Shown here in pieces: positions 2,691 through 53,163 of a stretch of DNA of 54,971 bases. Position 1 is the stretch's first letter. Every line of letters begins with the position of its first letter. Position numbers and translations under genes: made by a program. The notes under the pieces were generated by a model. That model had not been told where the DNA came from. It made no database searches and was given only the letters and a program-made list of their open reading frames with translations. This DNA comes from Candidatus Daviesbacteria bacterium (GTDB taxonomy: Bacteria > Patescibacteriota > Microgenomatia > Daviesbacterales > UBA10151): positions 1 to 54,971 of the forward strand of contig JAQUSJ010000003.1 in NCBI GenBank assembly GCA_028715175.1, given 5' to 3'.

Positions 2691-3734
2691 ATGAAACATT
2701 TTTTAACAACCTCAGATTTTGGACAGCAAGAATTGATGAATATGATAAAAACTGCTTTAGTGATGAAGAAATCAGGATGGAAAAAATCACTTCAAGACAG
2801 GATTCTCAGCATGTTTTTTTTCAATCCATCGTTGCGAACCAGATTGTCGTTTATTACCGCCATGGATAAGTTGGGTGGTCTGGCCGTGGATTTATCTTCT
2901 GGTAGTGGCGGTTTTCCGTTTGAATTTAAGGAGAATGCAGTCATGGATAAAAACACTATTGAACATGTTAAAGAAGCAGTGCCTGTGATATCGCGCATGA
3001 GTGATGCTATTGCTGTTAGAGCAAGCGAGCTAGTGACTGCTTCTTCAAAAAGCGTTAAAGTTCTTTCATGGGATGAGGTCAAGAAAGATACTACTATACA
3101 GAGTTTTGCCAAATACGCTACGGTGCCTGTTGTGAATATGGAATCAAATGTTTATCATCCCTGTCAAGGTTTAGGTGATGCCATGACTATTATGGAAAAG
3201 TTAGGTAACCCTAAAGGTAAAAAGTATGTTCTAACATGGGTTTATCATCCCAAGGCTCTACCAATGGCTACGGCGAATTCTCAGATTCTCTCTGCTTGTG
3301 ATTTGGGAATGCAAGTTACCATAACTTATCCTGAAGGATGGGATCTTGACGAGGATATTATCAATACAGCCAAAGCAAGAGCCAGACAAACCGGTGGGTC
3401 TTTAACGCTGGCTAACTCTCAGCAAGAAGCATTTCAGGATGCCCATATTGTATGCGCCAAAAGCTGGGGATCTATCAGGCACTATGGTGCTTGGTCTAAA
3501 GAAGATAAGATAAAGAAAGGATTAAAACACTGGATAGTTGACAAACAAAAAATGGATCTGACTGATAATGCCTATTTTATGCATTGTCTTCCTGTCAGGA
3601 GAAATGTTGAAGTGACGGATGAGATTTTAGACAGCTTATCTTCGATCGTGATTGATGAGGCAGAAAATAGAATGTGGATTCAAATGGCGATACTGGATTA
3701 TTTAATAGGTAAAAAGGATAAAAACCATGGATAA
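2691..3734 (+). CDS. argF': N-acyl-L-ornithine (acetyl/succinyl) carbamoyltransferase-like transcarbamylase
   Basis: FFNPSLRTR replaces the usual STRTR, alongside HPCQ and MHCLPVRRNVEVTD. The N-terminus KHFLTTSDF and C-terminus VIDEAENRMWIQ match the AOTCase/SOTCase subfamily rather than classical OTCase. Confidence 0.75.
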   Translation: MKHFLTTSDFGQQELMNMIKTALVMKKSGWKKSLQDRILSMFFFNPSLRTRLSFITAMDKLGGLAVDLSSGSGGFPFEFKENAVMDKNTIEHVKEAVPVISRMSDAIAVRASELVTASSKSVKVLSWDEVKKDTTIQSFAKYATVPVVNMESNVYHPCQGLGDAMTIMEKLGNPKGKKYVLTWVYHPKALPMATANSQILSACDLGMQVTITYPEGWDLDEDIINTAKARARQTGGSLTLANSQQEAFQDAHIVCAKSWGSIRHYGAWSKEDKIKKGLKHWIVDKQKMDLTDNAYFMHCLPVRRNVEVTDEILDSLSSIVIDEAENRMWIQMAILDYLIGKKDKNHG

Positions 3735-12106: not shown

Positions 12107-13147
12107 ATGAAGCGGATACTTACTGGAGATCGACCTACAGGTAGGTTACATTTAGGCCATTACGTTGGGTCACTCAAAAATAGGGTCAGGTTGCAAGATG
12201 AATATGAGTGTTTTTTCATCATTGCAGATTTGCATACCTTAACCACTAAACCAGAGAAAACAAAAGAGTTAAAGGACAATATTTATCAAATGGTGTTGGA
12301 TTATTTATCTATTGGCATTGATCCAAAAAAGTCTACTGTCTATATCCAATCCCAGATTCCGGAAGTTGCAGAACTGGCCCTAATTTTTGGAAATTTAACC
12401 ACAGTTCCAAGGCTTGAGCGCATGCCGACTTTAAAAGATGTAATGAGAGATGCAGATATACAAGTTCCTTCGTATGGACTCTTGGGTTATCCGGTTTTGC
12501 AGGCGGCAGATATTTTGATGGTTAAAGCTAATTTAGTGCCTGTGGGAAAAGATCAGGTATCTCATGTTGAAGTAACCAGAGAAGTGGCTAGGGATTTTAA
12601 TAGAATTTATCGGTCCACCTCCGAGGAGTCAAAGCCCACCTCGGAGGTGTCTAGTCAGGTTTTGCCAATTCCTGAGGTTTTGGTTGGGGAAATTCCCACT
12701 TTGCCCGGTACAGATGGAGCAGTAAAAATGAGTAAATCTGCAGGTAATGTGATTAATTTATCGGATTCTCCTGAAGAAGTAGAGAAAAAAGTCATGGGTA
12801 TGTATACAGATCCAACCAGGATTCATCCTACAGATCCAGGGCATGTGGAGGGTAATCCGGTATTTACATATTTGGATGCTTTTGGAGCTGATTCTGACAA
12901 ACAACAAATAACTAAGTACCAAGAACTATACAGACAAGGCCAGGTTGGGGATATTGAGGTAAAAAAGTATCTGGTTAAAGTTTTAAATAATTTCCTGGAT
13001 CCAATAAGAGAAAATCGAGCTCGATACGAGCGAGATCCTGAGCTTGTCGAACGGATCTTAAAAGAAGGTACTGCCAAAACCAGAACAGAAGCCCAAAAAA
13101 CCCTCCTTGAAGTCAAAGCTGCCATGAAGCTGGATTATTTTGTATAA
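12107..13147 (+). CDS. trpS: Tryptophanyl-tRNA synthetase
   Basis: GDRPTGRLHLGHYVG is the HIGH motif and KMSKS is present. The start was chosen at MKRILTG. It contains an in-frame hairpin insert at 12615-12649. Confidence 0.9.
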   Translation: MKRILTGDRPTGRLHLGHYVGSLKNRVRLQDEYECFFIIADLHTLTTKPEKTKELKDNIYQMVLDYLSIGIDPKKSTVYIQSQIPEVAELALIFGNLTTVPRLERMPTLKDVMRDADIQVPSYGLLGYPVLQAADILMVKANLVPVGKDQVSHVEVTREVARDFNRIYRSTSEESKPTSEVSSQVLPIPEVLVGEIPTLPGTDGAVKMSKSAGNVINLSDSPEEVEKKVMGMYTDPTRIHPTDPGHVEGNPVFTYLDAFGADSDKQQITKYQELYRQGQVGDIEVKKYLVKVLNNFLDPIRENRARYERDPELVERILKEGTAKTRTEAQKTLLEVKAAMKLDYFV

Positions 13148-13289
13148 AGCAGCTTGTCGCAGTACAAAAAATCACTCGCACGGTAGGGACTTGCTCGTTT
13201 GTGTTAGTTTTGTGTCGATCGGTTTCTGGTCCGAGATTTAGTTAGCACAAAACTAACAACATTTTTTGTTTACTTACGACTTCGCTGCC
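13148..13289 (+). repeat. Structured intergenic repeat, copy 1 (family also at 51431-51570 and 52163-52306)
   Basis: Shares the 5' block GTACAAAAAATCACTCGCAC...GCTCGTTTG and the 3' block CAACATTTTTTGTTTAC...ACTTCGC with the other copies. An internal perfect stem pairs 13201-13214 with 13246-13258. Confidence 0.7.
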
Positions 13290-13317
13290 TTTTAAGGTTT
13301 TATTGTGAAGCTGTTTG

Positions 13318-13326
13318 TGTTACAAT
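13318..13326 (+). promoter_or_regulatory. Candidate extended -10 promoter element for ftsH
   Basis: TGTTACAAT (TGn + TACAAT) lies 31 nt upstream of the ftsH ATG. No good -35 was found. Confidence 0.3.
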
Positions 13327-13356
13327 TTGCAACACTTGTAGCGAGCAAGTCGAACT

Positions 13357-15204
13357 ATGGCAAATGGCAAAAGAAGAATCAATTTGAACAAAAGAATATG
13401 GGCAATTATTAAAGGTTTAGTCATTTATATCCTAATTGCTTTAGCTGCTCTGATTTTCTTTTATCAAGTTTCCGGCGGACCCAAAACTGCTGACAGCAGT
13501 GAAGTGCCAATTTCTCAAATTATTTCTGATGTCAAAGATAATAAATTGACAAAAATCTCTGTGGAAGGGGATAAGGTAACAGCAGAAGTAAAAGATTCAG
13601 ACAAGAAGATTACCTCCCGCAAAGAAGCCGGGGAATCCATCTATAAAATTTTAGAGTCGAGTGGTGTTGATCCTAAAACCGTTACCATTGAAGTAAAAGA
13701 TTTGTCTATCCAGGAGGCTTGGATTGGGATTTTGTCGGCAGTGTTACCAATCCTGATATTGGTGGGTTTGATGTTTTTGCTTTTCAGAAACGCCAGAGAA
13801 GGAGCACAGGGTATTTTTTCTTTTGCTCAATCCAGGGCCAGGCTTTTCACCAAAGATCAGCCACAAATTAAGTTTTCAGATGTAGCCGGGGCAGAAGAAG
13901 CAAAACGCGAACTATCTGAAGTAGTGGAATTTTTAAAGACCCCGGGGAAGTTTAAAGCCTTAGGAGCAAGAATACCTAAAGGAGTATTAATGGTGGGTCC
14001 GGCCGGAACAGGTAAAACATTACTATCAAGGGCAGTGGCAGGGGAAGCCGGAGTGCCATTTTTCTCTATTGCAGGGTCAGAGTTTATGGAAATGTTAGTT
14101 GGAGTTGGTGCGGCCAGAGTCCGGGATATGTTTGCCCAGGCCAAAAAAGCCGCTCCGGCAATTATTTTTGTTGATGAAATTGAATCAATCGGCAGGCAGC
14201 GCGGTATGGGTTTTTCCGGCGGGCACGATGAAAGGGAGCAAACTTTAAACCAGATCTTGGTGGAGATGGACGGGTTTACCCCTAATGATCATGTGATAGT
14301 GTTGGCAGCTACAAACAGACCTGATCTTTTGGATGCAGCCTTAGTAAGGCCGGGCCGTTTCGACAGGCGGGTAGTTTTAAGCTTACCGGATTTGGCAGAA
14401 AGAAAAGCTATCATTGAACTTCATATGAAAGGTAAGCCTTTCACCAAAGATGTTTCAACAGAAAAATTAGCGAGAAGAACCGTGGGGTTTTCCGGGGCAG
14501 ATTTGGCTAACATGTTAAATGAGGCGGCAATTCTGGCAGCACGAGAGGGAAAAACTGCCATAGACAATAAAGATTTGGAAGAAGCTGCCACTAAGGAAAA
14601 ATTAGGGCCGCAGCGAAAAAGAATACAATCGGAACAAGACCGGAAACTGGCAGCCTATCATGAAGCAGGTCATGCCATTGTAGGGCATTTTTTAAAAAAC
14701 GTTGATCCGGTGCACCGTATTTCGATAGTTGCCAGAGGCATGTCCGGAGGACATACAATGTTTCCTCCAACAGAAGACCGTTCTAACGAGAGCAAATCCC
14801 GCCTTTTGGAACAAATTACCGCGGCCCTGGGAGGGCAAGCTGCAGAAGATTTGATTTTTAAGGATATTTCAACAGGCGCGGCATCGGATATTGAAATAGC
14901 CACTAACATTGCAAGATCAATGGTTACCCAATATGGCATGTCTTCTTTAGGGCCGATTAATGTAAACCCCAGGCCCATGTTTGGAATTTGGCGGGGGATG
15001 GAAGAGGGAGCAGATCTCTCCCCGAAACTTCATGATGCGGTGGATACGGAAACAAGGAAAATAATGGATCTTTGCTATAAAAATGCCCAGGATATTTTAA
15101 GAAATCATAAAATTAAATTGGATAAGGTAGCCAAAGAGCTTTTAGAAAAAGAAACCCTGGAATCTGAGGAATTTGAAAAAATTGTGGGGAAGAAGAAAAG
15201 TTGA
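13357..15204 (+). CDS. ftsH: ATP-dependent zinc metalloprotease FtsH
   Basis: An N-terminal TM pair, the AAA Walker A motif GPAGTGKT, the second region of homology, and the HEAGHA zinc motif. Confidence 0.95.
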
Positions 15205-21150: not shown

Positions 21151-23400
21151 ATGAAAAGATTAGTGCTTGTAGACGGTAATGCCCTGCTTCATCGGGCATA
21201 TCATGCCACTCCTCCTTTTACTACTTCCAAGGGAGAGTTAGTTAATGCTGTTTTTGGCTTTTCTTCCATGATTTTAAAGGTTATTTCTGAACTTCATCCT
21301 GAGTATTTGGCTGTGGCCTGGGATGAAAAAGGGCCAACTTTCAGGCACCAGGCTTATACCCAATATAAAGCCACCCGGGGGCCTGCGGATGAAGGTTTAT
21401 CCAACCAATACAAAAGGGTTCATGAAGTAGTCCGGGCTTTTAATATTCCGGAATTTAAAGTTTCCGGGTACGAAGCAGATGATTTGATTGGGACTTTAGC
21501 TTTGCAGGCACAAAAAGAGAAGGATTTAGAAATTGTCATTGTGACGGGGGATCGGGATATCATGCAGCTTATTGATAAAAAGATTAAAGTATTTATGCCC
21601 AAAAAGACTCTTTCTGATGTGGGGCTTTATGGGGTAGAGGAGTTTATGGTTAAATACGGGTTTTTTCCTAAACAACTTACGGATTATAAGGGTTTGGCAG
21701 GAGATGCATCAGATAATATTCCCGGAGTAGCAGGGATTGGGGATGTTACAGCCACTAAATTAATTCACCAATTTGGTTCTATTGAAGAAATTTACAACCC
21801 TAAAAATTTAAAAACTCTTCCGGAAAGAACGCAAACACTGCTATCAGAAGGTGCAGAATCTGCGGTGATGAGTAAAAAATTGGCTATGCTAGACACAAAA
21901 GCACCTATCAAATTAAATCTTAAAGCTTGTGTAATGCATGATTTTGATAAGGAAAAGGTGGTTAAACTGTTTGAGGAATTAGAGTTTAAAAGTTTGATTG
22001 CCAGGTTACCCGAAGACGCTCGGGGTCCTGTCAGCTCGATATCCCGCCGTGCATCCTCGCTGGACGCTGCGGCTACGCGTCGGGATGCCCTTCTCGCTGC
22101 CACCCCTCGCGTGGCTACTTCTGACTTCGCCATCTCTCTTGATAACTTTGTTGCACCTATATTAGAAAAAATGTCTAAAACAGGTGTTTTAATAGATTTG
22201 AAGTTTTTAAGTAAGTTTGGTAAGGAACTAAAAGCTAAATTAGCCAAACTCGAAAAAGATATTTACTCAAAAGTGGGACATCAGTGTAATCTGAACAGCC
22301 CGAAACAATTATCGCAAGTGCTTTTTGATGAACTAAAATTACCGGTGGTCAGGAAAACTAAAACCGGCCGCTCAACCGATGAAGAGACTTTGCAAGAGTT
22401 ATCTTCCGCCCATCCTGTTGTGCCGTTCCTCCTCCAATACAGGCAGCTGTTTAAGCTGGTTTCAACATATATTGATAGCCTGCCAAAATTTGTTGGGCCG
22501 GATGGCAGAATCCACTCTACTTTTAATGTAGAGGGAGCTGCTACCGGCAGACTATCTTCAAAAGATCCTAATTTGCAAAACATTCCGGTTAAAGGTTCGG
22601 CAGGGGGAGAAATAAGGAAAGCGTTCGTGGCGCCCAAAGGCAAGATTTTATTGGGAGCTGATTATTCACAAATTGAGCTTAGAATAATGGCGCATCTGGC
22701 AGATGACCCGGGGCTAAAGAAAGCTTTTGAGCAAAGTTTGGATATCCACGGCGCCACTGCCTCAAGAATTTTTGGAGTACCAGTGGATAAAGTTACCAGG
22801 CAGCAGAGAATGGTAGCTAAAACCATGAATTTTGCCACGCTTTACGGGCAAGGCCCCCATGCTCTTTCCCGCCAGTTGGGAGTGAAATATGAGGTGGCGC
22901 GTCAATATATTGAAGAATATTTTGAGCAGTTTCCCAAAGTCAGGGAGTGGATGCAAAAAACTTTGGCTTTTGGTTATGAAAATGGTTACATTGAAACTTT
23001 ATGGGGGAGGAAAAGATATATTCCGGAGCTGCGAGCCGAAAATAGAATGATTAAATCAGCAGGTGAGCGGGCTGCTGTTAATCATCCTGTTCAAGGAACT
23101 GCCGCAGACATGATTAAAAAGGCAATGGTGGAAATAGAGAAAGAGCTATCAGCTATCAGCTATCAGCTGTCAGAAAGTCTGAAAGCTGACAAGTCGCCAA
23201 AGGCGACTGATACTGAAAGCTGCCGACTTATTCTCCAGGTTCATGATGAGCTACTTTTTGAATGCAACCCCAAACGTGTTAATGAAGTAGCAAGAATGGT
23301 CAAGGAGAAAATGGAGAATGCCTTAAAACTTTCTGTGCCGGTTTTGGTTGATCTAAAAACAGGGAAGAACTGGGGAGAAATGAAGCCCCTTAGAATTTGA
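21151..23400 (+). CDS. polA: DNA polymerase I: 5'-nuclease plus polymerase domains, no 3'-5' exonuclease domain
   Basis: The N-terminus LVDGNALLHRAYHA and GDASDNIPGV mark the 5'-nuclease. RLSSKDPNLQNIP, ADYSQIELRI and LQVHDELLFE are polymerase motifs A to C. Two repeat-derived inserts are present. Confidence 0.9.
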   Translation: MKRLVLVDGNALLHRAYHATPPFTTSKGELVNAVFGFSSMILKVISELHPEYLAVAWDEKGPTFRHQAYTQYKATRGPADEGLSNQYKRVHEVVRAFNIPEFKVSGYEADDLIGTLALQAQKEKDLEIVIVTGDRDIMQLIDKKIKVFMPKKTLSDVGLYGVEEFMVKYGFFPKQLTDYKGLAGDASDNIPGVAGIGDVTATKLIHQFGSIEEIYNPKNLKTLPERTQTLLSEGAESAVMSKKLAMLDTKAPIKLNLKACVMHDFDKEKVVKLFEELEFKSLIARLPEDARGPVSSISRRASSLDAAATRRDALLAATPRVATSDFAISLDNFVAPILEKMSKTGVLIDLKFLSKFGKELKAKLAKLEKDIYSKVGHQCNLNSPKQLSQVLFDELKLPVVRKTKTGRSTDEETLQELSSAHPVVPFLLQYRQLFKLVSTYIDSLPKFVGPDGRIHSTFNVEGAATGRLSSKDPNLQNIPVKGSAGGEIRKAFVAPKGKILLGADYSQIELRIMAHLADDPGLKKAFEQSLDIHGATASRIFGVPVDKVTRQQRMVAKTMNFATLYGQGPHALSRQLGVKYEVARQYIEEYFEQFPKVREWMQKTLAFGYENGYIETLWGRKRYIPELRAENRMIKSAGERAAVNHPVQGTAADMIKKAMVEIEKELSAISYQLSESLKADKSPKATDTESCRLILQVHDELLFECNPKRVNEVARMVKEKMENALKLSVPVLVDLKTGKNWGEMKPLRI

Positions 23401-23473: not shown

Positions 23474-23836
23474 ATGATTCAGAGCTTCAAAGATTTAGAG
23501 GTTTATCAAGAAAGCTATGAATTAGCAATTACTGTAAATAAACTTTGTATAAAACTTCCGATTTATGAGAAAAATGATTTAGCTTCACAATTAAGGCGTG
23601 CCTCAAAATCTGCACCTGCCAATGTTGCCGAAGGTTGGGCGAAAAGAAGATTTGAAAAAGAATTCAAAAAGCATCTCGATTGCGCAATTGGATCAGCTAA
23701 TGAGATGGAGGTGCATTTAAATATGGCAAAAGATTTAGGTTATCTGAATCAGGTAATTTGTGATGAGCTTATTAGTAGATATATTGCTTTAGGCGGGAAA
23801 CTAACCAATCTTAGAAATAATTGGAAAACTTATTAG
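23474..23836 (+). CDS. Four-helix-bundle protein (23S rRNA intervening-sequence protein family)
   Basis: FKDLEVYQESYELA, LRRASKSAPANVAEG and GSANEMEVHL are characteristic of the IVS/four-helix-bundle family. The protein is 120 aa. Confidence 0.8.
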   Translation: MIQSFKDLEVYQESYELAITVNKLCIKLPIYEKNDLASQLRRASKSAPANVAEGWAKRRFEKEFKKHLDCAIGSANEMEVHLNMAKDLGYLNQVICDELISRYIALGGKLTNLRNNWKTY

Positions 23837-47452: not shown

Positions 47453-47595
47453 ATCTTCTTTAGAATAACTTAAGGAGAGTGTATTTTACAATATCTCCCC
47501 AATCTATTACAATCTTGAGGAGTAACTAGTACAGTAAATGTAACAAGGCAAAAGAATTAAAATAGCTTGTTACTTGTCACCAGTTACTTGTTACT

Positions 47596-49365
47596 ATGCT
47601 ATTTTCTAAATTAGCGGAATACTTTGAAAAATTGGAACAAACTTCTTCCAGACTTACTTTAATTGATATTCTCTGTGATTTATTTAAAGAAGTAAAAGCA
47701 GAGGAGGTTAGTAAAGTTTGCTATTTAATCCAGGGTCGAGTGGCTCCTTTTTATGAACCGATAGAGATCGGCATGGCAGAGCGTACAGTTGCTGCCAGCA
47801 TAGCCCGGGCATATGGAGTGAAGCGGGAAGACGTTCTTGAGGAATATGGTAAGGTTGGTGATTTAGGGTTGGTGGCAGAGCAGATGACCATTTGTCATTC
47901 TGGTAAGCGAAGCGCATCCATAATCGATTCTGGACAAGCCAGAATGACAGTTGCAGAGGTTTTTAAGACATTAAAAGAAATTGCTCAAATTTCAGGGGTT
48001 GGGACTGTGGAGAAAAAACAAGGTCTGTTGGTAGGTCTTTTGCAAAAAGTAGATTCTGTTTCAGCTAAACATCTGGTCAGAATTCCCCTCGGGGTATCAA
48101 GACTCGGGATTGGGGACCCGACAATTTTGGATGCTTTTGCCAAATTAAAATTGGGGGATAGATCCAAACGTAAACTTTTGGAAGGGGCATATAACCGGGT
48201 TTCTGATTTAGGTTTGATTGGGGAAACTTTATGGAAAGGTGGACTTGTCGCGGTTGAAAAACTGCAAGTCCGGGTGGGAAGACCAATACGGTCCCAGCTT
48301 GCAGAAAGGTTGCCAAACCCGGAAAAAGTCATAGAAAAAATGGGCGAGGTGAATGTACAAAGAAAGCTGGACGGATTCCGTGTTCAAATCCACAAAGATG
48401 GAGAAGCAGTCAGGCTTTTTTCGCGGAATTTGGAGGAAACAACAGCAATGTTTCCGGAGATTGTAGAAGGGACTACGGTGCAGATTAAAGCCAAAACTGC
48501 AATCTTAGACTGTGAGGCAATTGGTTTTAACCCTTTGTCTGATGAATTTTTGCCTTTTCAGGAAACTACCCAAAGACGTAGAAAATACGGCATTTCTGAA
48601 ATGGCAAAAAAGATCCCCCTGAAAGCTTTTTGTTTTGATATTTTGTATAAAAATAACAAATCTCTGATTAATTTACCTCTTCACGAAAGACTAAAAGAGC
48701 TGGAAAGTATTGCCAAACAGGACGACACGATTATTATTGAAAAGGGCGAAACTGTAAAAGACGGAAAAAAACTGCAAATACTTTTGGATGATGCTATTTC
48801 CAAAGGTTTGGAAGGGGTTGTTTGCAAAAGACTGGATTCAAAATATGAGGCAGGGGCCAGAAATTTTAACTGGGTTAAACTGAAGAGACATTCTGCAGGG
48901 GAGCTAGAGGATACCATTGACTGCGTGATTTTAGGTTACATTTTTGGCAAGGGAAAAAGATCCGGGTTCGGGGCCGGGTCTTTGCTTGTGGGTGTTTACG
49001 ATGAGTCGCAAGATGAATTTGTGACAGTTTCCAAAATTGGCACCGGTTTAACAGATGAGGAATGGAGAGAAATACACAAAAGAGCGGATAAAATTAAGGT
49101 TTTGCACAAACCTGCCAGGGTGAATTCTCTTTTGACCCCCAGTGTTTGGATTGAACCCTCGATTGTGATTGAAGTTTTGGCAGATGAGATTACCCGTTCT
49201 CCTGTACATACTGCCGGAAAAAAGGGTCCGCCAGCTGGCGGAGAACCTGGCTATGCCCTAAGATTTCCCCGGCTGGTGAAATTCCGCGAAGCTGACAAAA
49301 AAGCAGAGGATGCCACAACAGTGAAAGAGTTGATTGAGATGTATAAACAGCAGTTTAAAAAGTAA
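47596..49365 (+). CDS. lig: ATP-dependent DNA ligase (three-domain, archaeal/eukaryotic Lig1-like)
   Basis: Motif I is KLDGFRVQIH, with the adenylated Lys. Also present are EGVVCK, NWVKLK, and an OB domain with LRFPRLVKFR. Confidence 0.9.
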   Translation: MLFSKLAEYFEKLEQTSSRLTLIDILCDLFKEVKAEEVSKVCYLIQGRVAPFYEPIEIGMAERTVAASIARAYGVKREDVLEEYGKVGDLGLVAEQMTICHSGKRSASIIDSGQARMTVAEVFKTLKEIAQISGVGTVEKKQGLLVGLLQKVDSVSAKHLVRIPLGVSRLGIGDPTILDAFAKLKLGDRSKRKLLEGAYNRVSDLGLIGETLWKGGLVAVEKLQVRVGRPIRSQLAERLPNPEKVIEKMGEVNVQRKLDGFRVQIHKDGEAVRLFSRNLEETTAMFPEIVEGTTVQIKAKTAILDCEAIGFNPLSDEFLPFQETTQRRRKYGISEMAKKIPLKAFCFDILYKNNKSLINLPLHERLKELESIAKQDDTIIIEKGETVKDGKKLQILLDDAISKGLEGVVCKRLDSKYEAGARNFNWVKLKRHSAGELEDTIDCVILGYIFGKGKRSGFGAGSLLVGVYDESQDEFVTVSKIGTGLTDEEWREIHKRADKIKVLHKPARVNSLLTPSVWIEPSIVIEVLADEITRSPVHTAGKKGPPAGGEPGYALRFPRLVKFREADKKAEDATTVKELIEMYKQQFKK

Positions 49366-49382: not shown

Positions 49383-50672
49383 ATGGCTTATGTAGCTGAT
49401 TTGCATCTTCACTCCAGATTCTCAAGGGCTTGCTCCCAGAAGTTAAATATACCTACTTTGTCTGCATGGGGGAAGACAAAAGGTATTAATGTTTTAGGTA
49501 CTTCTGATTTTTTGCATCCTGTCTGGTTTATCGAACTTAAAAACCAACTTAAAGAAGACGGTTCAGGTTTTTTAATTCATGACGGTTCGGAAACAAAATT
49601 TGTTTTATCTGTTGAGGTGGCCTCAATTTATTCTCATAAAGGTAAAGGTAGGAGAATACATAATGTTATTTTGTTGCCTGATTTTGCATCCGCAGAGAGA
49701 TTTCAAAAAGAGCTGCTATCACGCCATGCAAATTTGGGTTCTGATGGCAGGCCGATTGTGGGGATTTCCTCAAAAGATCTTTTAAGTATAGTTTTACAGA
49801 TTTCCGAAAAAGCCATTTTTATCCCGGCCCATGCCTGGACGCCCTGGTTTGGGATTTTTGGTTCAGAGTCTGGTTATGACTCTTTGGAAGAATGCTTTGA
49901 GGATTTAACAGAGTATATTTATGGAATAGAAACAGGGCTATCTTCTGATCCGGCCATGAACTGGCGGATAAAAGAACTTGATAACCGGTCAATAATTTCC
50001 TGTTCCGATGCCCACTCACTGCCTAATTTAGGCAGGGAAGCAACGGTATTTGATGAAAGATTGGAACAGGGATATCAAGGGTTATTTGAGGCTATAAAAA
50101 ATCAGAAAATTGCCGGTACTATTGAATTTCATCCGGAAGAGGGGAAGTATCATTACACGGGGCATCGCAATTGTAATATAAAATATTCACCCGAAGAAAC
50201 AAAGGTAAAAGGCGCAATTTGTCCAAAGTGCGGTCGGGGATTAACTGTCGGAGTAATGGAGAGGGTGGAGAAGTTAGCTTTGCGATCGAATGAAGAATTG
50301 AGAATTGATAATGTAAAAGGAATAATAAAAAGCAAAGCGTTTCCGGAAAAAGCAGGATATAGGATGCTGGTGCCTCTTTTACAAATAATTGCAGAAAGTT
50401 TTAATACTGCTCCAACAACCCAAAAGGTCTTAAACGAGTATGAAAAGTTAACAGATTTATTGGGAGGAGAGATTAAGATTTTGACTAAAGTTGACACAGG
50501 GGAAATTGCCAAAGTGTCCGGTTCGAAAATTGCAGAAGGGGTGGATAAAGTAAGGCGCGGGGATTTGGTAATTGATCCTGGGTATGATGGGGTGTATGGG
50601 GTGGTGAAGATTTGGGGTAGTGAAGCTGGACCGAAAGAGGAAGAGACTCCGCAGTTGGAGTTGTTTGATTAA
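49383..50672 (+). CDS. Endonuclease Q-like PHP-domain nuclease (TIGR00375 family)
   Basis: ADLHLHSRFSRA, GTSDFLHPVW, GRP, PAHAWTPW, GLSSD, SCSDAHSLPNLGRE, GKYHYTGH, the zinc ribbon CPKCGRGLTVGVMERV, and C-terminal PGYDGVYG. These are colinear with the remembered Pyrococcus EndoQ sequence. Confidence 0.75.
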   Translation: MAYVADLHLHSRFSRACSQKLNIPTLSAWGKTKGINVLGTSDFLHPVWFIELKNQLKEDGSGFLIHDGSETKFVLSVEVASIYSHKGKGRRIHNVILLPDFASAERFQKELLSRHANLGSDGRPIVGISSKDLLSIVLQISEKAIFIPAHAWTPWFGIFGSESGYDSLEECFEDLTEYIYGIETGLSSDPAMNWRIKELDNRSIISCSDAHSLPNLGREATVFDERLEQGYQGLFEAIKNQKIAGTIEFHPEEGKYHYTGHRNCNIKYSPEETKVKGAICPKCGRGLTVGVMERVEKLALRSNEELRIDNVKGIIKSKAFPEKAGYRMLVPLLQIIAESFNTAPTTQKVLNEYEKLTDLLGGEIKILTKVDTGEIAKVSGSKIAEGVDKVRRGDLVIDPGYDGVYGVVKIWGSEAGPKEEETPQLELFD

Positions 50673-50682
50673 AGAGTTGGTT

Positions 50683-50783
50683 CGCTCGGGGTCCTGCCGG
50701 CTCGATATCCCGCCGTGCATCCTCGCTCGACTATGCTCGCTGCGGCTACGCGTCGGGATGCCCTTCTCGCCGTCACCCCTCGC
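50683..50783. repeat. GC-rich hairpin element, intergenic copy (coding copy in polA at 22017-22110)
   Basis: About 90% identical to 22017-22110, with one 7-nt indel. Internal pairings include ATCCCG/CGGGAT and GCATCC/GGATGC. Confidence 0.8.
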
Positions 50784-50806
50784 TTATTTTGTTCGTTTTA
50801 ATTGAA

Positions 50807-51430
50807 ATGAAGATTTTTAAAGATAGACAATCTGCTGGAAAATTATTGACTGAGAGGCTAAAAAACATCAAGGCTGATCTGGTTTTAGGTATCCCGAGAG
50901 GCGGGGTGGTAGTGGCGGCAGAAGTGGCCAGACAATTAAATCTGCCATTGGATATCATAGTTACCAGGAAAATTGGCGCTCCAAACCAGGAAGAATTGGC
51001 TCTGGGGGCTGTGGATCCGGACGGAGAAGTAGTATGGGATCAGGAACTTTTGGATGAACTTAAAATAAAACCTGAAGATTTAAAACAAAAGATTGGTACA
51101 GAGATAAAAGAATTAAAAAGAAGGGAAAAACTATATAGACAAGGCAGATCGTCTCTTGATATCTCCGGGAAAACAGTCATTTTAACAGATGATGGCATGG
51201 CTACCGGCTCCACTACTCTTGCTGCTGTTAAATACCTAAAAAGGCATGAGGTAAAGGTAATATTGGCTGTGCCAGTGGCAAGCCAGGAGGCTTTGGATAA
51301 AGTGGAAAATGAGGTTGGAAAGCTGGTAGTATTGGAGATTCCTGAATATTTCCAGGCCGTAGGCCAATTTTACCAGCAGTTCCTACCTGTTTCAGATGAA
51401 GAAGTGATACAATTAATGCTTAGAAGTTAG
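50807..51430 (+). CDS. Phosphoribosyltransferase family protein
   Basis: The PRPP-binding loop is VILTDDGMATGST. The start was chosen at MKIFKDR. Confidence 0.8.
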   Translation: MKIFKDRQSAGKLLTERLKNIKADLVLGIPRGGVVVAAEVARQLNLPLDIIVTRKIGAPNQEELALGAVDPDGEVVWDQELLDELKIKPEDLKQKIGTEIKELKRREKLYRQGRSSLDISGKTVILTDDGMATGSTTLAAVKYLKRHEVKVILAVPVASQEALDKVENEVGKLVVLEIPEYFQAVGQFYQQFLPVSDEEVIQLMLRS

Positions 51431-51570
51431 CTCGTCAGCGCGCAAAAAATCGCTCGCACGCTAGTATCGTTGCTCGCTTGTGAGGATTTTGTGGTAGCCA
51501 GATTCAATATCATTTGGTTCTATCTGCACAAAATCCTCAACATTTTTTGACTGCTGCTGACTTCGCTATC
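51431..51570 (+). repeat. Structured intergenic repeat, copy 2
   Basis: Has the same terminal blocks as 13148-13289. The stem pairs 51480-51493 with 51527-51539 and carries compensatory changes. Confidence 0.7.
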
Positions 51571-51577
51571 TTTACCG

Positions 51578-52159
51578 ATGAAACTTATTGTGGGTTTAGG
51601 AAATCCGGAAAGTAGATATGCGGGAACCAGGCATAATTTGGGGTTTGCCGTGGTCGATGAGTTCGCACGGAAATGTATAATTGATAATGTACAATTTACA
51701 ATTGATCAGAAATTTAAATCAGAAATTATTAAACTTCAGGAGTTAATTTTAGTTAAACCTCAGACCTACGTGAACAATTCAGGTATGGCTGTCAAACTCC
51801 TAACTACATACTACAAACTACCAACTACCAGTTTGATTGTGATTCATGACGAGTTGGATCTGCCTTTGGGAAAGATTAAAGTAAGAATGGGTGGAGCAGC
51901 AGCAGGCCATCATGGGGTGGAGTCAGTGATCAAAGCTTTAGGAACAGATCAGTTTATCCGGGTGAGATTAGGGATTGGGAATTTAAGAACTCAAAGCGGG
52001 GAGCATAAAGGTCAAAGCTTGTCTGCCGAAAAATTTGTCCTGGAGCCATTTATGCCTAAAGAAAAAACTTTAGTTAAACATATGATCAGGCAGGCCATAA
52101 AAGCTTTGGATTTGCTTTTGGAAAAAGGTCTGGAATCAGCCCAGAATCAGTTTAATTAA
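51578..52159 (+). CDS. pth: Peptidyl-tRNA hydrolase
   Basis: LIVGLGNPESRYAGTRHNLGF and VIHDELDLPLG. Confidence 0.95.
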   Translation: MKLIVGLGNPESRYAGTRHNLGFAVVDEFARKCIIDNVQFTIDQKFKSEIIKLQELILVKPQTYVNNSGMAVKLLTTYYKLPTTSLIVIHDELDLPLGKIKVRMGGAAAGHHGVESVIKALGTDQFIRVRLGIGNLRTQSGEHKGQSLSAEKFVLEPFMPKEKTLVKHMIRQAIKALDLLLEKGLESAQNQFN

Positions 52160-52162
52160 TAA

Positions 52163-52306
52163 GCGGCTCGTTCGTGTACAAAAAACCGCTCGCGCAACCA
52201 AATCGCTCGCTTGATGTTTGTTTCGCGCCATGCAAACATCTGAATCATGAAGTAGGTAAATGTGCTCAACTACACAACATTTTTTGTTTACACTGAACTT
52301 CGCCGC
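52163..52306 (+). repeat. Structured intergenic repeat, copy 3
   Basis: GTACAAAAAACCGCTCGCGC...CGCTCGCTTG at the 5' end and CAACATTTTTTGTTTACACTGAACTTCGCCGC at the 3' end. The internal hairpin differs: 52213-52220 pairs with 52233-52240. Confidence 0.65.
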
Positions 52307-52353
52307 TTTTTGTTCTTGACAGAAAGTAGGTTTCTCTTTAGACTAAGGTATTC

Positions 52354-53163
52354 ATGGATAGCAAGAACACTTTTTTAACAACCCCGAAGGCAGTAATTAT
52401 TGGCTCTATTGTAATCTCTGTTGCCATTCTTATAGCAGGAGGCATTATAAAAATAGGTCCAAAAAATGCTGGGACTGCCGCAAATACCCCTGTTCCTACT
52501 GCTTCACCTGCTGCCAGACCCCAACAACCCACAGTTACCTTGGATGCTGTTAAAAAAGCCTTTTCTGAAAGCCAGATCAAATTTGGTGATACCAACAAAA
52601 AACTTATTATACTGGAAATTTCCGATCCTTCTTGCCCTTATTGTTCAATTGCTACCGGTAAAAATCCGGAGCTTAATAAAGAAGCCGGTTCCCGCTTTAC
52701 TTTGGTGGCAGACGGGGGAACATATGTTGCACCTGTTTCGGAAATAGAAAAACTGGTCAAAAATGGTTCTGCTTCTTTTGCCTGGATTTATACTCCAGGT
52801 CATGGCAACGGGGAAATGGGTACTAAAGCATTGTACTGTGCATTCGAACAAGGTAAATTCTGGGAAGCCCATGATTTACTCATGAGTTCAAAAGGATATG
52901 ATTTGCTGAATAACACAGTCAAGAATGATAAAAGCAAATCCGCAGATGTGGCAAATCTTTTATCATCTGCTGTCAATTCTGCCACTTTAAAATCCTGTTT
53001 GGATTCAGGTAAATATGATGGTAGATTACAAACTGATGTAGGGCTTGCACAAGGATTGGGAATAACCGGGACTCCGGCATTTTTCCTCAATGCCACCCCG
53101 TTTACCGGCGCTTATTCTTATAAAGATATGGAATCTGCAGTTAAAACCGCACTGGGTCAGTAA
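52354..53163 (+). CDS. Membrane-anchored thioredoxin-fold thiol:disulfide oxidoreductase (DsbA-like)
   Basis: An N-terminal TM segment, the CxxC motif SDPSCPYCS, and GITGTPAFF (cis-Pro loop). Confidence 0.75.
   Translation: MDSKNTFLTTPKAVIIGSIVISVAILIAGGIIKIGPKNAGTAANTPVPTASPAARPQQPTVTLDAVKKAFSESQIKFGDTNKKLIILEISDPSCPYCSIATGKNPELNKEAGSRFTLVADGGTYVAPVSEIEKLVKNGSASFAWIYTPGHGNGEMGTKALYCAFEQGKFWEAHDLLMSSKGYDLLNNTVKNDKSKSADVANLLSSAVNSATLKSCLDSGKYDGRLQTDVGLAQGLGITGTPAFFLNATPFTGAYSYKDMESAVKTALGQ

Follow-up and report, generated by a model that had tools for sequence, protein, structure and literature searches.

Is a structured repeat that keeps its pairing while its sequence changes a working RNA, or a mobile piece of DNA that happens to be transcribed? 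The question is raised by contig JAQUSJ010000003.1 of a Candidatus Daviesbacteria bacterium (assembly GCA_028715175.1), of which we analysed the whole 55-kb stretch of 54,971 nucleotides, referred to here as the window. Three copies of a palindromic repeat of about 150 bp lie on its plus strand, between trpS and ftsH (copy 1, 13147–13296), between a phosphoribosyltransferase (PRT) gene and pth (copy 2, 51425–51577), and between pth and a dsbA-like gene (copy 3, 52161–52314); these neighbours were assigned by Pfam. A preliminary description of this DNA had proposed either a non-coding RNA or a structured miniature inverted-repeat transposable element (MITE). The evidence leans towards a MITE, on account of copies lying in frame within open reading frames (ORFs), sites that are filled in some genomes and empty in others, and unrelated neighbouring genes, while orientation and an excess of G-U pairs keep a role at the RNA level open. 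We consider it probable that the element is a lineage-specific, non-autonomous selfish palindromic repeat, comparable to MITEs and to the Rickettsia palindromic elements (RPEs), that is carried in sense within host mRNAs.

A covariance model combined with exact block matches identified exactly three full copies in the window, scoring 152.8 (copy 1), 145.0 (copy 2) and 127.7 bits (copy 3). The next independent site reached only 18.5 bits, and two 21-bit matches are opposite-strand readings of the palindromic stem P4 in copies 1 and 2. The conserved 5' and 3' blocks attributed to the three copies are each present in the window three times and no more, in the same orientation and at the sites named for them; the consensus first given for these blocks matches all three copies, except that copy 2 has GCGC for GYAC and GACTGC for GNNNAC. 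Combining exact-pattern scans, an nhmmer profile and the covariance model, we recovered 51 distinct copies from public genomes and metagenomes, all of them in metagenome-assembled genomes of Candidatus Daviesbacteria/Microgenomates, so that what had been proposed as a family is one, and is confined to Daviesbacteria. Locus L009, taken from a record titled 'uncultured Gammaproteobacteria', is collinear with the Daviesbacteria locus L003, and other such records are likewise collinear. Copy numbers are low, with at least six copies on one 770-kb contig and at least five on one 1.02-Mb contig. Genomes carry a mixture of three subfamilies. Copies 1 and 2 belong to type A, copy 3 belongs to type B, whose P3 and P4 helices are GC-rich, and in type C CAAAGCA/TGCTTTG takes the place of an A6/T6 helix. 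An Rfam covariance-model search gave no match at gathering score and, at E ≤ 10, noise only (CRISPR-DR24, snoR143, mir-19 and Phe_leader, all at or below 20 bits); phage, plasmid and viral collections gave no match, and in the literature we found no description of one.

Every copy folds as a single long hairpin made of helices P1 and P2, a small P3, and P4, with a length of 142–147 bp from P1 to P1. In copy 1, column mapping places P1 at 13147–13153 (AAGCAGC) paired with 13284–13290 (GCTGCCT), followed by an internal loop in which TT at 13154–13155 (TC in most copies) lies opposite TTC at 13281–13283. P2 pairs 13156–13172 (GTCGCAGTAC followed by AAAAAAT) with 13261–13280 (ATTTTTT followed by GTTTACTTACGAC) and holds the A6/T6 helix. 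Together, P1 and P2 form imperfect terminal inverted repeats of approximately 25–30 nt that are 87–95% paired, and in all copies the element ends read GCNGC-TCGTC ... GAC-TTCGC-GCNGC. Next on the 5' arm comes a one-sided block (13173–13200) in which two CTCGC boxes flank the 3-bp P3 and which has no counterpart on the 3' arm; its alignment columns are invariant or near-invariant, and the P3 pair 41–54 is A-U or G-C depending on the subfamily. P4 is a 13-bp stem (13202–13214 with 13246–13258), of the TGTTAG/CTAACA type in copy 1, and encloses a variable apical region (13215–13245) with a loose TCATTRAG motif; as a rule this region contains no structured apical loop (P5), its folds having a mean z of about 0. 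The 3' end (13284–13296, GCTGCCTTTTAAG) consists of the 3' strand of P1, a short T-run and TAA, the T-run and TA(A/G) occupying 13291–13296; YTTTTA(A/G) follows P1 in most copies and is generic rather than copy-specific.

The other two copies in the window are built in the same way. In copy 2, P1 pairs 51425–51431 with 51565–51571, P2 pairs 51434–51450 with 51542–51561 and P4 pairs 51481–51493 with 51527–51539; in copy 3, the corresponding positions are 52161–52167 with 52302–52308, 52170–52186 with 52279–52298, and 52215–52227 with 52263–52276. Compared with dinucleotide shuffles, copy 2 is 5.2 standard deviations more stable (−50.4 kcal/mol, z = −5.2), copy 1 is 3.1 (−42.9 kcal/mol, z = −3.1) and copy 3 is 2.3. 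A copy-specific extension of P1 into the flanks was considered and rejected: pairing between a copy's own flanks (1.46) was not significantly greater than that between flanks of different copies (1.30; 340 of 2000 permutations), the A-rich and T-rich flanks being generic. At the 18.5-bit site mentioned above (47554–47619), directly before a DNA ligase gene, is a short hairpin whose ends resemble those of the element (AAAATAGCTTGTTAC...TGTTACTATGCTATTTT); it may be an interior-deleted remnant, or a chance match.

The stems initially noticed in copy 1 (GTGTTAGTTTTGTG, 13201–13214, with CACAAAACTAACA, 13246–13258) and copy 2 (GTGAGGATTTTGTG, 51480–51493, with CACAAAATCCTCA, 51527–51539) do pair as described. 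The hairpin proposed for copy 3, GATGTTTG/CAAACATC, is also present, but it is specific to that copy and differs from the homologous P4 pairing of subfamily B. The more general proposal, that the stems have undergone compensatory change, holds far beyond shuffled and slid controls. In a MAFFT alignment of 36 copies that was not fitted to the structure, 92.7% of cells are paired and 23 of the 39 pairs change on both sides, with 127 double-change cells compared to 37.5 ± 5.4 in shuffles; none of 500 shuffles reached any of five measures, and moving the partner by 1–3 columns left only 5–10 double-change pairs. When the 51 copies were aligned to the covariance model, a model-guided procedure that leans towards structure, 92% of cells were paired and 31 of the 39 pairs changed on both sides, again a value that none of 500 shuffles attained, as against 7–13 when slid. 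The outer part of P2 occurs in 28 distinct paired haplotypes, P1 in 20 (among its versions GCAGC/GCTGC, GCGGC/GCCGC, GTGGC/GCCAC, TAGC/GCTA and GAGAC/GTCTC) and P4 in 13; the double changes are thus not a few inherited events.

The wobble pairs give an indication of which strand folds. Counted by distinct haplotype, G-U pairs on the sense strand number 33 and A-C pairs, which would be the wobbles of the other strand, 20 (p ~0.05), with 21 against 7 in the outer P2. This excess is suggestive of folding by the sense strand, and it fits RNA and single-stranded sense DNA alike. It is one of the observations in favour of a dedicated cis-acting RNA motif, whose hairpin and CTCGC boxes some protein or nuclease of Daviesbacteria would read on the mRNA for processing, stability or stop-to-start coupling, with its spread to further genes being secondary. 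The conserved, asymmetric unpaired block on one arm would suit such a reader. Against this, the element has no Rfam relative. It is also textbook knowledge, and a caveat for every reading at the RNA level, that templated correction of quasi-palindromes in DNA can itself produce multi-base 'compensatory' patches.

The genes next to the element bear on the same alternative. They are unrelated housekeeping genes, such as trpS, ftsH, pth, ftsZ, efp, atp genes, gatA/B, purB/E, thyA and a ligase gene, and the upstream contexts number at least 25, which rules out a gene-specific riboswitch or leader and also speaks against a dedicated motif. Orientation points the other way, as 48 of the 49 assessable copies are in sense with the upstream host gene and one is antisense; given at least 25 independent sites, a ratio of 48:1 is nowhere near what chance would give. 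On the upstream side, the stop codon is 0–5 nt ahead of P1 or within it, and the next start is usually found 6–17 nt beyond the element, a co-directional ORF being no more than 17 nt away in more than half of the copies. A stop at the foot of P1 with a start shortly after it in most copies is what stop-to-start coupling would call for. Coupling of the element's reading frame to the upstream stop was rejected, since all three phases occur. In the window, the trpS stop codon (TAA, 13145–13147) overlaps the first position of copy 1, the PRT stop codon (TAG, 51428–51430) lies inside the 5' strand of P1 of copy 2, and the pth stop codon (TAA, 52157–52159) lies just before copy 3. The sites had at first been described as upstream of ftsH, pth and the dsbA-like gene; the positions are right, but what stays constant is the relation to the preceding gene's stop codon (trpS, PRT and pth), and framing the element as a 5' untranslated region is misleading.

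The sole antisense copy (L089, 4135–4303) is situated between two opposite-strand genes, abuts a stop codon, has the next start at 13 nt, and possesses a degenerate P1. Targeting of stop codons by the 5' end of the element was rejected, as this copy abuts a stop codon too. Because the antisense copy fills the same kind of slot, we infer that adjacency to stops arises because these genomes have very short spacers, in which an insertion is tolerated nowhere but between the stop codon and the ribosome-binding region; for a dedicated RNA motif, an antisense copy in such a slot is a further difficulty.

A position directly after stop codons, with a T-run behind both P4 and P1, also brings to mind a mobile intrinsic terminator like the SPRITE repeats of pneumococcus and the TRIT repeats of mycobacteria, hairpins repeated after genes and followed by a T-run, in which upstream transcription would stop at P4 plus UUUUUU or at the whole hairpin plus YUUUUA. 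Sense-only orientation suits a direction-dependent terminator, some copies precede convergent genes, and promoter-like sites lie beyond copies 1 and 3: the dsbA-like gene has TTGACA-17-TAGACT at 52316–52344, directly beyond copy 3, and copy 1 precedes TGTTACAAT at 13319–13327, a promoter-like site by our reading of the sequence, ahead of the ftsH ATG at 13357. The geometry of the element is nonetheless not that of a canonical terminator. A consensus scan called neither a canonical promoter nor a terminator within it, the P4 loop is 31–37 nt long and as a rule unstructured, with a 3-nt spacer before U6, and the T-run after P1 amounts to just 3–5 bases. Most copies are, moreover, inside tightly spaced operons, where the 17 nt or less before the next co-directional gene leave no room for a promoter; behind copy 2, the ATG of the essential pth (51578) directly follows the element. 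Copies inside PolA, described below, would truncate the mRNA. We regard a mobile terminator as very unlikely.

One further pairing in the flank of copy 1 had been pointed out, between GACTTGCTCG (13188–13197) and CGAGCAAGTC (13342–13351), just before the ftsH ATG. The complementarity exists but is confined to copy 1 and is no feature of the family: among the other 35 copies, a 10-nt flank complement occurs only in L019, and there it is to a different part of the element. Probably, the sequence at 13342–13351 is either left over from an inverted copy or complementary by chance.

Comparison of orthologous loci speaks to movement. Locus L038 is syntenic with the window at 86–93% nucleotide identity, which identifies the window as part of a Daviesbacteria chromosome, and both carry an element at the pth|dsbA site. 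In L037, L039 and L040 this site is empty, and the same TTGACA comes 5–12 nt after the pth stop codon. The TTGACA-17-TAGACT site is kept in relatives with or without the element (L037, L039 and L040, about 3075–3115), and the element went in between the pth stop codon and the TTGACA box. At the PRT|pth site the window has copy 2, whereas in L038 the site is empty, with the two genes 5 nt apart and flanks 86–93% identical. For a dedicated RNA motif it is awkward that the empty sites of such close relatives show no visible substitute. Many orthologous sites, on the other hand, are shared across species, as such a motif would lead one to expect; copy 1 has an orthologue behind trpS in L008. Some orthologous sites hold different subfamilies, the PRT site being occupied by type A in the window (copy 2) and type B in L015, and the efp site by type A in L034 and type B in L014. 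Among individual copies, the one at L086 (409–455) is cut to its first ~47 nt, and L013 has an 11-nt inverted element fragment (AATCGCTCGCA) ~100 nt upstream of its copy; both remnants are signs of decay or rearrangement at copies. Filled and empty sites, subfamily swaps, the truncated copy and the differences in gene order described below indicate that the elements turn over. Exact insertion ends could not be defined from the filled/empty pairs, whose junctions are too diverged.

Gene order varies at the elements as well. A PHP-domain gene, PRT, an inositol monophosphatase gene and pth are arranged differently between species exactly at element positions (49383–53163 in the window compared with L010, L012, L015 and L037–L042), and some genes stand singly between two copies, namely pth in the window, the PHP gene in L012 and a dcd-like gene in L006. 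Such an arrangement would suit a recombination site that acts as folded single-stranded DNA in the style of attC or of the REP-RAYT system, with genes as shufflable cassettes. Like the element, attC sites (for instance the Vibrio cholerae repeats, 60–140 bp) are imperfect palindromes placed after the stop codon, oriented with the gene, and conserved in structure more than in sequence, which in the element applies to the foot of the hairpin. However, the alignment shows no RYYYAAC/GTTRRRY (R''/R') cores at that foot, neither an integrase nor a Y1 transposase is encoded in the 55 kb, the genes between copies are essential ones with housekeeping roles (pth, trpS, ftsH and the like), and the copies translated in frame within ORFs clash with a cassette logic. 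The changes in gene order are consistent with repeat-mediated deletion or rearrangement, which accounts for them without a dedicated site. We therefore hold a recombination site of this kind to be highly improbable.

Copies inside proteins also bear on the element's character. Two independent insertions in frame in ORFs were observed, one in the linker of PolA (L016) and one in a 320-aa hypothetical protein, in which the element follows FLPNW[VI]G in L019, L082, L083 and L084 and also, judged by peptide, in P0122. Homologues of the 320-aa protein have at the same spot either nothing or peptides of other palindromic repeats. Both sites use the same frame in the same orientation (AARHSTKNRSHGRDLLACE...AQNPQHFL..CDFAA), and this frame is free of stops in 16 of 36 copies, as against 0–4 copies for the other five frames; beyond this open frame, which lacks start and stop signals, the small copies contain no conserved ORF and no transposase gene. 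A word-based census of the element's peptide returned three short spurious ORFs and missed even the known in-ORF copies. Translation within two proteins is hard to reconcile with a dedicated RNA motif. The four orthologous in-ORF copies (L019 and L082–L084), whose proteins are 64–72% identical, do, however, keep the full hairpin at the DNA level, with P1 and P2 differing yet remaining complementary (for example GTC/GAC to GCC/GGC or GTT/AAC), and this retained pairing counts in favour of an RNA motif. Taking both sides together, we judge a dedicated RNA motif to be possible, though rather unlikely.

The PolA linker is hypervariable in Daviesbacteria and carries other repeat-derived peptides too. 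Peptides of several palindromic repeat families, such as IPAFAGMT, LPRSLRSLAMT and SLARQRKRP, are found in this linker (columns 340–400 and 745–800) and in the 320-aa family (columns 229–285), and the loops of both proteins are thus hot spots or safe havens for repeat insertion. The window itself contains a second, unrelated GC-rich repeat, whose two copies (22017–22110 and 50683–50783) are 88% identical and have fold z values of 0.15 and −1.0, neither of them significant; one is in frame in the PolA linker and the other is in the PHP|PRT spacer, a spacer that holds the hairpin element instead in L012 and L038. In PolA, the GC-rich repeat is followed by GGCTACTTCTGACTTCGCC, which resembles a leftover 3' end of the hairpin element. 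The copy at 50683–50783 was considered as a fourth member of the hairpin family and rejected, its sequence being different and its fold not significant.

Judged by analogy, the element is a new family within a known kind, the bacterial palindromic interspersed repeats, and its closest functional analogue is the RPE. RPEs, too, are palindromes of ~150 bp restricted to one lineage, present both between genes and in frame in unrelated housekeeping ORFs, where a single open frame adds a conserved peptide. No partner transposase is known for RPEs or for the element. Insertion of palindromic repeats in frame in ORFs is their hallmark (PMC10969869). The likeness proposed is one of behaviour, in that the element works like an RPE, and not one of family membership: the hosts are members of the candidate phyla radiation (CPR) here and Rickettsia there, and a relationship in sequence is not to be expected. 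In addition, only two in-ORF sites were found here whereas nearly half of the R. conorii RPEs are in ORFs, and the intergenic copies here are near-strictly in sense and abut the stop codon.

Resemblances to other families are more partial. The element shares with prokaryotic MITEs its small size, its terminal inverted repeats and its dispersed copies with presence/absence differences, and lacks their target-site duplication. Like the element, the Correia and ERIC MITEs are intergenic repeats, 100–170 bp in length, with long inverted repeats. Those families duplicate a TA target, are found in either orientation and are numerous within a genome, whereas the element has no detected duplication, a 48:1 orientation and 5–10 copies per genome. 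Insertion into the TA of stop codons with duplication of TA, in the manner of IS630 or Correia, was rejected, as many of the stops are TGA and flank repeats within copies are no better than between them. Correia elements in Neisseria and ERIC elements in enterobacteria are hairpins, co-transcribed with adjacent genes, that affect mRNA processing; RNase III is involved in the former and, at the 3' ends of genes, RNase E in the latter (PMC10969869). REP/BIME sequences are likewise extragenic palindromes at gene ends or between cistrons that show compensatory change and form stem-loops at mRNA 3' ends; REP units, however, are 20–40 nt long and mobilised by RAYT, while the element is a multi-helix hairpin of 150 nt and no RAYT/Y1 transposase is among the window proteins.

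How would a selfish repeat of this kind persist? It would spread, or be exchanged, at the DNA level, by a trans-acting function or by recombination or conversion between copies, and would then be transcribed as part of host mRNAs. There its hairpin would fold back, so that stop codon and following start come to lie near each other again, which may be what allows it to survive. At most, it would act as an intercistronic or 3'-end stem-loop, that is, as a partial attenuator, an exonuclease barrier or an RNase target, and not as a gene-specific regulator; the orientation bias would then reflect selection on the transcribed strand.

Several observations weigh against a selfish repeat. The copy number is low for one, a 48:1 orientation bias is unexpected of ordinary MITEs, and ~30 unpaired bases of one arm are strongly conserved. 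The hairpin, with complementary changes in P1 and P2, is kept in the orthologous in-ORF copies of species whose proteins are only 64–72% identical. No target-site duplication is discernible, the longest direct repeat shared by the two flanks averaging 3.33 nt for flanks of one copy and 3.45 nt for flanks of different copies (as high or higher in 1678 of 2000 permutations). A scan for a longer element with the same left end, made with the commonest 20-nt variant in one genome for each of 185,579 species, yielded 150-nt copies and one truncated copy and no longer element. Pfam searches of the window proteins revealed no transposase, integrase or reverse transcriptase. Lastly, mobility is deduced from presence and absence, a pattern that recombination or deletion could also give.

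The traits that are foreign to ordinary MITEs (48 of 49 copies in sense, an in-ORF hairpin maintained across species, the conserved asymmetric CTCGC block and single genes bracketed by two copies) led us to consider a further possibility, namely that the element is a sense-strand module whose folded single strand, whether of RNA or of non-template DNA, is recognised by a putative Daviesbacteria factor that places or uses it at stops. Such a module might be a signal for intercistronic processing or translational coupling, or might confer a hairpin-guided mobility, similar to attC or REP or through an RNA intermediate, by which single housekeeping genes are also reshuffled between copies. We think this decidedly unlikely, and favour the selfish palindromic repeat.

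Two other features of the window deserve mention. A T-box leader (Rfam RF00230, 104 bits) at 175–389 lies just upstream of an argininosuccinate synthase gene (427–1650) that heads an arginine-metabolism gene cluster. At 23474–23836, a '23S rRNA intervening sequence protein' gene (PF05635) stands alone beside polA, and the window contains no rRNA.

The genomes of CPR bacteria are very small and streamlined, genetic systems in culture are lacking for them, and to our knowledge next to nothing has been described of their repeats and non-coding RNA. For Daviesbacteria genomes, the element provides an annotation marker that guards against false ORF calls and accounts for unusual insertions in proteins such as PolA, and it supplies an example beyond Rickettsia of palindromic repeats built into essential proteins. 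With 31 covarying pairs, a near-absolute sense orientation and filled and empty sites, it is also a clean test case for distinguishing RNA function from palindrome correction at the DNA level. If the orientation rule does reflect a role in RNA, a major lineage of uncultured bacteria would be found to use a new mRNA signal.

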